Shown here: positions 3,238 through 3,454 of the stretch, in pieces
How positions within the stretch are numbered: position 1 is the stretch's first letter
How the letters are laid out: every line of letters starts with the position of its first letter
Assembly: GCF_003334405.1 (NCBI RefSeq)
Contig: NZ_QOWM01000034.1
DNA from: Escherichia coli
Lineage (GTDB): Bacteria > Pseudomonadota > Gammaproteobacteria > Enterobacterales > Enterobacteriaceae
Strand: one strand, 5' to 3'
DNA: 3,454 nucleotides
The notes under the pieces: generated by a model
The model's database searches: none
What the model saw: the letters and a program-made list of their open reading frames with translations, nothing else
Told to the model about the DNA's origin: nothing
Translations under genes and position numbers: made by a program

Positions 3238-3454
3238 TTACTCTTCATCATCCCGCAGGAACTGACAAAAGTCTTCGCTCCCCATCATATCGACAGTGTT
3301 TTTAAATTCGAAAAAAGAAATTCCTGTCATAGCACACACGCGTTGGATAATCAGTTTTTTCTTTTGCTGTCTGACGGTTGCGGTTTCACCAAACTGGATA
3401 ACAGCCAGGACTGTTTCATCATATGATTTCAGGACAAAATCACAGGTTATATTC
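3238..3454 (-). CDS. C-terminal 71 codons of an unidentified minus-strand ORF (N-terminus lies beyond the window)
   Basis: Own translation of the minus strand: ...NITCDFVLKSYDETVLAVIQFGETATVRQQKKKLIIQRVCAMTGISFFEFKNTVDMMGSEDFCQFLRDDEE, then stop (TAA = complement of 3238-3240). Open to the window edge and followed by a terminator. Not in the ORF track because it is truncated. Confidence 0.5.
   Translation of the reverse strand, partial: NITCDFVLKSYDETVLAVIQFGETATVRQQKKKLIIQRVCAMTGISFFEFKNTVDMMGSEDFCQFLRDDEE

Follow-up and report, generated by a model that had tools for sequence, protein, structure and literature searches.

A DUF2726 gene at the edge of the IncX4 plasmid backbone: a degraded restriction-endonuclease-like domain, probably a remote relative of Ddp3/TaxD

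What is the gene that runs off the edge of this stretch of Escherichia coli DNA, and what might its protein do? The window (the whole stretch analysed, 3,454 nucleotides) ends inside an open reading frame (ORF) on the minus strand that converges on its neighbour. A sequence-only reading had described 71 C-terminal codons open to the window edge, an acidic C-terminus (...FLRDDEE) and a strong bidirectional terminator after the stop; it could not assign a family from the fragment and asked for a search with the full-length protein. The features to which the analysis refers are the following.

2856..3209 (plus strand): convergent neighbour, an ORF of 117 amino acids with an N-terminal hydrophobic segment (ORF list)
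3214..3235 (no strand): intrinsic-terminator-like hairpin, common to both convergent genes (scanner, folding)
3231..3237 (no strand): junction between conserved IncX4 backbone and variable cargo (megablast, three-way alignment)
3238..3453 (minus strand): 3' part of the coding sequence, residues 105-175 of the 175-aa DUF2726 protein, with the stop (translation, 100% amino-acid identity)
3238-3240 (minus strand): stop codon TAA (translation)
3241-3453 (minus strand): the 71 sense codons, open to the window edge and ending ...FCQFLRDDEE
3241..3252 (minus strand): acidic C-terminal tail D-D-E-E (read from the sequence)
3355..3372 (minus strand): basic patch R132-Q-Q-K-K-K137, start of helix 131-147 (invariant columns)
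3376..3396 (minus strand): strand beta-3 and loop, I-Q124-F-G126-E-T-A-T130, the degraded active-site motif (alignment, column counts)
3439..3441 (minus strand): codon of D109, the aspartate of the conserved (H)xDFV strand (column counts, sequence)

We sought to determine first of all whether the fragment is coding. The minus strand from 3238 to 3453 translates to NITCDFVLKSYDETVLAVIQFGETATVRQQKKKLIIQRVCAMTGISFFEFKNTVDMMGSEDFCQFLRDDEE followed by the stop, and base 3454 is part of the next codon upstream. The translation bears out the 71 codons open to the edge, and the acidic C-terminus as well: six of the last 12 residues are acidic, and homologues with 59-68% identity terminate in KDDE(E). 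Openness alone is weak evidence of coding, because 71 codons without a stop would arise by chance with a probability of about 0.015 per frame at this base composition, and two plus-strand frames over the same stretch are nearly open, with one stop each. The claim that the ORF is coding was thus based on conservation, namely the substitution pattern. Relative to the IncX4 gene, the fragment has no non-synonymous and two synonymous nucleotide differences. Its dN/dS is 0.26 against a closer variant in plasmid NZ_CP122596.1, and the comparison with a 65%-identical homologue, whose contig carries the label Yersinia pestis, gives pN 0.21 and a saturated pS of 0.78. Twelve homologues of 59-96% identity share 56 invariant columns. 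This pattern confirms the ORF as a real gene under purifying selection, and the earlier view of it as the C-terminal part of a real convergent gene holds; in the closest relatives the gene has 175 codons.

The fragment is identical (100% of amino acids) to residues 105-175 of WP_000577043.1, a 175-aa "DUF2726 domain-containing protein" encoded on the backbone of IncX4 plasmid p14EC033b. It is thus almost certainly the 3' 40% of this IncX4-type backbone gene. The remaining 5' 104 codons lie past the window edge, and in all relatives examined the reading frame runs 104 codons further, up to an ATG. Since the window holds 71 of the 175 codons, the upstream part of the gene and the inverted repeat described below were read in relatives. 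Past position 3454, we expect an ATG preceded by AGGA, and then a repeat arm of about 94 nt with CAATGCAGGATAGACAATC. Truncated variants are also found in databases (P0005, with 147 aa, and P0021-P0024).

The window as a whole matched 2154 plasmid records, of which the best two (E. coli plasmids of 34 and 33 kb) covered 86% and 83% of it at 98% and 95% identity; the best coverage by E. coli genomes was 55% of the last kilobase of the window. The backbone part of the fragment stretch matched 457 plasmid records. Neighbours annotated in the best records include a DinQ-like type I toxin (dqlB), a ParA/MipZ-type ATPase and small hypothetical genes. The window is IncX4-like plasmid DNA with a dqlB/AgrB toxin-antitoxin module and a parA-RHH locus, and the DUF2726 gene is the last in a row of rep(pir), a bis-like gene and DUF2726. 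The ORF was already known: RefSeq catalogues it, under a domain-of-unknown-function name, on hundreds of plasmids, and surveys name the gene as a flank of mcr-1 in the context "DUF2806-mcr-1-pap2-DUF2726" (PMC12915395).

The 3' end of the gene is also the edge of the backbone, because the alignment with IncX4 plasmids sets in at about 3231, 7 nt beyond the stop (megablast match from query position 382 of window:2850-3454), and because the hairpins beyond it differ: in a three-way alignment, each relative had a different hairpin at this position. Directly at this junction, p14EC033b carries the mcr-1-pap2 cassette. In the window, the junction is followed by the ORF of 117 amino acids, for which no near DNA match was found in the plasmid collection and only tblastn matches of 31% identity were obtained. 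This ORF is cargo and lies outside the backbone gene.

The hairpin at the junction consists of AAAAGCCC-GAAA-GGGCTTTT, with 8-9 pairs, of which only four are G-C. In a 56-nt context it folded at -12.9 to -13.4 kcal/mol, with z-scores of -2.9 and -3.8. The terminator scanner called it on both strands, among four sites found where 0.3 were expected, and it has the form of a Rho-independent terminator, that is, a G+C-rich stem-loop with a U-tract. On the minus strand, an 8-pair stem is followed by ATTTTTTAAT, a good U-tract for the DUF2726 gene, and on the plus strand a 9-pair stem is followed by GATTTACTCTT, an interrupted and weaker tract. The hairpin is therefore real and bidirectional, as had been proposed, but the word "strong" was generous for the plus direction with its broken T-tract; given only four G-C pairs, we consider it a decent terminator.

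The sequence-only reading could not assign a family from the fragment; full-length relatives fall in Pfam DUF2726. The Pfam query was WP_282867045.1, a 96%-identical full-length orthologue in which the window fragment spans residues 105-175, and it matched DUF2726 (PF10881) over residues 53-156 (E 2e-13, 50.6 bits). The same domain was precomputed for all 25 close homologues (25/25), including the cluster of WP_000577043.1. DUF2726 has been grouped with the PD-(D/E)XK phosphodiesterases, near Vsr and DUF559, and is listed with function unknown (PMC3424549). When 1.84 billion cluster representatives were searched exhaustively with a profile, only 22 reached E<=1e-3. With so few members, the plasmid-restricted branch of the family is small and isolated.

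AlphaFold2 gave a model with pLDDT 88 and pTM 0.76 from an 83-sequence alignment that included canonical DUF2726 proteins; with the 12 close homologues alone, the model was unusable (pLDDT 43.7). The order of core elements in the model is helix 58-70, strands 76-82, 107-113 and 119-125, helix 131-147 and strand 150-154, which is the alpha-beta-beta-beta-alpha-beta core of the PD-(D/E)XK fold. Helix 131-147 has pLDDT above 90, and the last residues drop to about 70. The model thus shows a predicted core of the PD-(D/E)XK, restriction-endonuclease-like type, related to the fold of Vsr and DUF559. Foldseek matches in AFDB50 were DUF2726 proteins throughout. A sequence search of the PDB returned no significant relative, only chance matches to response regulators (E 0.33). 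PADLOC had no match for the DUF2726 gene, and so it is not a catalogued defence gene. Membership in the Shedu SduA_C family was also considered; its Pfam E-value of 0.075 was treated as fold-level noise.

Next, we compared the active-site columns of 67 canonical DUF2726 sequences with those of 12 plasmid-branch sequences. The canonical motifs are E...(S)F, K-V-R-x-x-D, H-x-D-F-V, I-E-L-D-D-x-S-H and R-D. The counts were as follows.

E60: canonical 67/67; plasmid branch 12/12
K80: canonical 66/67; plasmid branch 12/12
R82: canonical 67/67; plasmid branch 12/12
D109: canonical 67/67; plasmid branch 12/12
H107: canonical 63/67; plasmid branch T in 12/12
E124: canonical 65/67; plasmid branch Q in 11/12
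D126: canonical 56/67; plasmid branch G in 12/12
H130: canonical 63/67; plasmid branch T in 11/12
R136: canonical 63/67; plasmid branch K in 12/12

The plasmid branch has fixed H107T, E124Q, D126G and H130T at four positions that are near-invariant in canonical proteins. D127 is kept as D or E (E in the IncX4 protein, D in 9/12 branch members), and D85 of the canonical signature is E in the IncX4 protein. The family signature (E60, K80, R82, D85, H107, D109, E124, D126, D127, H130 and R136) is thus present only in part, and the complete catalytic and metal-binding set of a Vsr-like nuclease (beta-2/beta-3 with the flanking histidines) is not found. Since the substitutions are fixed and themselves conserved, they indicate a changed function rather than decay.

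T107, D109, Q124, G126, T130 and the RQQKKK patch all lie within the window fragment. There, D109 is the one canonical acidic core residue that was kept, and the beta-3 strand that reads I-E-L-D-D-x-S-H in canonical proteins carries the degraded motif. R132, Q133, Q134, K135 and K136 are invariant columns in the plasmid branch, and RQQKKK (132-137) is a candidate DNA-contact surface. The full IELDD motif is kept in P0028, a relative at the same plasmid position.

The position of the gene was then examined on complete plasmids. In IncX4, rep(pir), a gene for a 134-aa membrane-like protein and the DUF2726 gene follow each other on one strand, and a single long inverted repeat, 94 nt at 99% complementarity, is present on the complete plasmid. 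In pOLA52 (IncX1), the arms are 110 nt long, and one of them overlaps the annotated start of ddp3 (36350). The arms lie as follows.

IncX4, 23934-24027: arm 1, between the 134-aa gene and the DUF2726 ATG at 23919
IncX4, 30724-30817: arm 2, immediately before taxA (30828), with the relaxase gene taxC next in line
pOLA52, 30691-30800 and 36246-36355: the two arms, which adjoin ddp1/taxA and the gene for "DNA distortion polypeptide 3"

Read gene-wise, the upstream sequences of taxA and of the DUF2726 gene are the same, and each is followed by its own ribosome-binding site. Three remoter IncX-like plasmids have arms of 93, 281 and 77 nt; the identity of their DUF2726 proteins to the IncX4 protein is 65%, 33% and 25%, respectively. 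Across these five plasmid lineages, down to 25% protein identity, the gene starts 10-45 nt past an arm, or overlaps it in the case of pOLA52. The twin of this arm either directly precedes taxA-taxC, or their counterparts beside the relaxase gene, or overlaps their start. Diverged members on long contigs (P0008, P0027, P0028 and P0031) follow Rep3 and a bis-like gene and lie opposite ParA; P0026, on a contig of 2.2 kb, lies beside an H-NS gene with no rep visible. In the relatives, the gene therefore occupies the slot of ddp3, that is, after rep and bis and downstream of an arm whose twin precedes taxA-taxC.

The arms have a common layout. In the five lineages, each arm has GCAGGATAG (complement CTATCCTG/C) at its start and then a large palindrome; CTATCCTGC, which reads GCAGGATAG on the strand of the gene, adjoins a palindrome with arms of 7-9 bp in 5/5 lineages. 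The complement CTATCCTG/C matches YATCCTG/Y, the consensus for the nick region in MOBP origins of the RP4 type. By sequence, the arms thus carry the elements of a MOBP-type oriT, a nick-like motif with an inverted repeat 5' of it, and their layout resembles the anatomy of such an oriT with a putative nick site. Typing assigns these plasmids to MOBP. The arm also holds a promoter-like site (TAGACA-16-TAACAT, TG-extended) and a small G+C terminator-like hairpin; promoter-like matches are common in its AT-rich DNA (10 found, 3.6 expected). Descriptions of IncX plasmids (PMC3402527, PMC3332091) give repX, bis, ddp3 as the usual order and place two oriTs within long inverted repeats, the first close to taxC and the second close to repX; they put ddp3 (= taxD) near the second oriT and link it to DNA-transfer processing.

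Is the IncX4 protein then related to Ddp3? The plasmid examined in place of R6K was pOLA52 (IncX1). The NCBIfam model DDP3 (NF041452) aligned with the IncX4 protein through positions 4-108 of its 116, at E 1.7e-6 and with 28.3 bits where the equivalog cut-off is 140 bits; the 65%-identical homologue scored 23.6 bits. Plasmid-branch proteins scored 24-36 bits over the whole profile, and canonical DUF2726 proteins 15-27 bits over its first three quarters only. When the 83-sequence DUF2726 alignment was compared with a 21-sequence Ddp3 alignment by hhalign, the probability was 92% (E 6e-7, 107 columns), while a narrow IncX4-only profile gave a weak match to DDP3 (19%, E 1.2e-3). Homology to Ddp3 is thus found at the profile level, weakly with the narrow alignment. 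The match of pOLA52 Ddp3 to Pfam DUF2726 was marginal (E 0.038), and pairwise BLASTP between the IncX4 protein and pOLA52 Ddp3 detected no similarity. The top 50 Foldseek matches in AFDB50 were DUF2726 proteins with no Ddp3 entry among them, so the structural search adds no independent support for the link to Ddp3. The bis-like proteins were also compared as possible homologues; with a BLASTP E-value of 0.98 against pOLA52, they are positional analogues only.

From profiles and position, the IncX4 gene and ddp3 are very probably remote homologues in the same functional slot. The IncX4 protein is not a Ddp3 equivalog by the NCBI criterion. Since it scores 28 bits where 140 are required, and pairwise BLAST sees no similarity, the transfer of function rests on position and remote homology. 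"DNA distortion" in R6K was reportedly attributed to Ddp1-3 by Flashner et al. (1996). For the part of Ddp1-3/Tax in distortion and transfer, two IncX studies refer to Flashner et al. 1996 and to Nunez et al. 1997 (PMC3402527, PMC3332091), and TaxA and TaxC have been equated with Ddp1 and Ddp2 (PMC3332091). In the literature open to search, the IncX4 gene is nowhere called ddp3 or taxD, Ddp3 is nowhere assigned a PD-(D/E)XK fold, and no experiment on the IncX4 DUF2726 protein was found.

We consider it probable that the protein is a non-catalytic, oriT-associated DNA-binding accessory protein, the IncX4 counterpart of Ddp3/TaxD. In the mechanism that we propose, the DUF2726 protein would no longer cut DNA. 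It would bind the oriT/long inverted repeat region, possibly as an extruded or melted palindrome, much as structured DNA is recognised by other proteins with PD-(D/E)XK folds. With TaxA and the relaxase TaxC as partners, it might help to distort, melt or bend the DNA so that the relaxosome assembles, as with Ddp1-3 of R6K. The taxA and DUF2726 genes would be co-expressed and co-regulated through the duplicated arm; a shared promoter/operator is probable because the arm sequence is shared and is oriented alike towards both genes. The mechanism as a whole, a non-cutting binder of the oriT/long inverted repeat that aids relaxosome assembly, seems to us slightly more plausible than not. More tentatively, and with somewhat less than even confidence, we propose that in the IncX-like clade a DUF2726 nuclease was turned into a non-cutting, structure-specific, oriT-binding relaxosome subunit. 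Ddp3 would be its most eroded form, the IncX4 protein and P0028, which keeps IELDD, would be intermediates, and the duplicated arm would wire expression to taxA-taxC.

Other explanations of the same data were weighed against this. The row of rep, bis-like gene and DUF2726 gene has one orientation in every lineage examined, as would be expected if the gene belonged to the replication module and acted at secondary (alpha/beta-like) origins or in copy-number control instead of in transfer. This reading is unlikely, since an arm with its own terminator-like hairpin and promoter-like site separates the gene from the bis-like gene, and the same arm precedes taxA, which ties expression of the DUF2726 gene to the transfer genes; secondary sources also class ddp3 as a mobilisation auxiliary gene (PMC3402527). 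A role mainly as a transcriptional regulator of taxA-taxC and of itself through the arm, with no structural part in the relaxosome, would account for the presence of the same 94-nt sequence with a promoter-like site upstream of both genes. Yet Pfam and NCBIfam searches found no recognisable HTH or RHH domain, and promoter-like matches exceed expectation in this AT-rich DNA. We regard a purely regulatory role as very unlikely, and it overlaps the accessory-protein reading instead of excluding it.

The substitutions bear on two further possibilities. The protein may still be an active nuclease, for example one that nicks the inverted repeat or recognises its structure, or one used in plasmid competition or defence: it has the PD-(D/E)XK fold, it retains D109, E60 and D/E127, which might allow a residual or altered activity, P0028 keeps IELDD in the same position, a PLD-type nuclease gene adjoins the DUF2726 gene on some related plasmids, and the Shedu nuclease domain is a weak Pfam match (E 0.075). 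However, the four near-invariant residues replaced branch-wide include the beta-3 glutamate and both histidines, Ddp3 is degraded further at the D109 and E124 positions, PADLOC had no match, and no immunity or partner gene is evident; we therefore hold continued cutting to be quite unlikely. The degraded motif and the truncated database variants (P0005, P0021-P0024) might alternatively mark a functionless relic, a former nuclease gene that decays while hitch-hiking beside rep. This was already disfavoured and is hardly credible in view of the purifying selection, the 56 invariant columns at 59-96% identity, which include the substituted positions, and the position and length that are kept down to 25% identity.

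The DUF2726 ORF is a backbone gene of the IncX4 plasmids, the main small vehicle of mcr-1, and its stop codon marks the exact junction of backbone and cargo: mcr-1-pap2 lies there in those plasmids and other cargo in the window. Because the gene is already catalogued, the practical value lies in annotation and context. The link between IncX4 DUF2726 and Ddp3 is a small annotation-level insight that suggests a three-part transfer-origin machinery (TaxA, TaxC and the DUF2726 protein) common to all IncX-like plasmids. If true, Ddp3 gains a fold, a degraded restriction-endonuclease-like domain, and an evolutionary origin, neither of which appears in the literature searched. Should this be confirmed, the protein would join the nucleases that have lost catalysis and now serve to bind DNA, and it might offer a target against IncX4 transfer. 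To plasmid biologists the DUF2726/Ddp3 picture would be unsurprising, and its general interest is low.

Among known systems, the nearest is WP_000577043.1 of p14EC033b, which has the same neighbourhood, with the par locus on one side and the cargo junction immediately 3'; it differs in having mcr-1-pap2 beyond the stop, where the window has the 117-aa ORF and its own hairpin. Canonical DUF2726 proteins (PF10881) share the core fold, E60, K80-x-R82 and D109-F-V. In the alignments, they mostly have a hydrophobic N-terminal start, and many have a C-terminal zinc ribbon of the topoisomerase type, whereas the N-terminus of the plasmid branch is a conserved, soluble extension (NVFSDFI..NP...NAF..GE.DCF). 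The closest systems also include solved PD-(D/E)XK nucleases: VRR-NUC (4qbn), DUF559-like (3hrl), I-Bth0305I (3r3p), TnsA (1t0f), Hjc (1hh1) and Vsr (1cw0). Ddp3/TaxD, of which only the R6K protein has been studied biochemically, has the same slot after repX and bis at the edge of the second-oriT arm, with the twin arm before ddp1/taxA, and both proteins are without the canonical beta-3 glutamate. Ddp3 is shorter (117-140 aa) and has neither the N-terminal extension of 50 residues nor the acidic tail. In the hhalign alignment, its residue is P where the IncX4 protein has D109 and G at the place of E124, and the basic helix start falls in a 12-residue gap. With these replacements and the missing basic start, Ddp3 looks like a further-eroded form of the same domain.

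Further features of the window are as follows:
294-381 (−) and 656-751 (+), type I toxin-antitoxin module, recognised by an Rfam AgrB match and by dqlB ORF annotation in relatives
350-382 and 548-580, direct repeat of 33 nt, 85% identical
1023-1038 and 1149-1164, perfect 16-nt inverted repeat, TTTAGTTACAACATTC / GAATGTTGTAACTAAA
1243-1415 and 2056-2113, GTGACATACA-type repeat arrays on both sides of the ParA-like gene
1412-2059, ParA-like gene
2134-2403, RHH-type gene, after the arrays
2428-2643 (+), 71-aa ORF, directly after the RHH gene
2856-3209 (+), 117-aa ORF, its N-terminal segment hydrophobic and signal-like

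The GTGACATACA-type repeats occur in direct and inverted orientation at a spacing of ~25 nt, and their arrays lie both upstream and downstream of parA and ahead of the RHH-type gene. They look like centromere/operator sites of the partition locus. The 71-aa ORF that follows contains two long hydrophobic stretches and resembles a small membrane protein. In the toxin-antitoxin module, the AgrB antisense RNA scored 62 bits in the window against a gathering score of 40, and the toxin ORF is dqlB (DinQ-like) by annotation in relatives; one copy of the 33-nt repeat falls within the AgrB match and the other upstream of the toxin ORF. The arms of the 16-nt inverted repeat lie 110 nt apart, and the DNA between them contains a G+C-rich palindromic stretch, GCGCGCCCGCCCGTACGGGCGG; the structure may represent either a terminator or a small inserted element.

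Two further features were found around the DUF2726 gene in other plasmids:
L007 (complete IncX4 plasmid) 23940-23958, with a twin in 30724-30817, and the arms of the more distant L004, L008 and L012: GCCTGCCGCAGGC, a short G+C palindrome with TCT after it
L008 7359-7880 and L011 1573-2097, PLD-family (PLDc_2, Nuc-like) nuclease gene

Within the inverted-repeat arm, the palindrome occupies the end nearest the gene; it is kept in the four lineages of the DUF2726 branch, the remaining arm sequence having diverged. It may serve as a binding site for a protein, or as an attenuator, ahead of both taxA and the DUF2726 gene. In these two distant IncX-like plasmids, the nuclease gene separates the DUF2726 gene from a bis-like gene, and the DUF2726 protein of L008 (P0028) retains the canonical IELDD motif.

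The 117-aa ORF occupies the cargo slot. No near DNA match to it was found among 72,556 plasmids, and at the protein level the only matches, at 31% identity, were hypothetical genes carried by 35 plasmids, of which 34 are conjugative. IncX4-type backbone homology ends ~7 nt past the DUF2726 stop codon (window ~3231; L002 4856-5008), and the hairpin at this junction is different in each IncX4-type variant. The same slot holds mcr-1-pap2 in IncX4 plasmids; because the mcr-1-pap2 cassette of p14EC033b borders this very junction past the DUF2726 stop codon, the junction behaves like a site of repeated cargo insertion.
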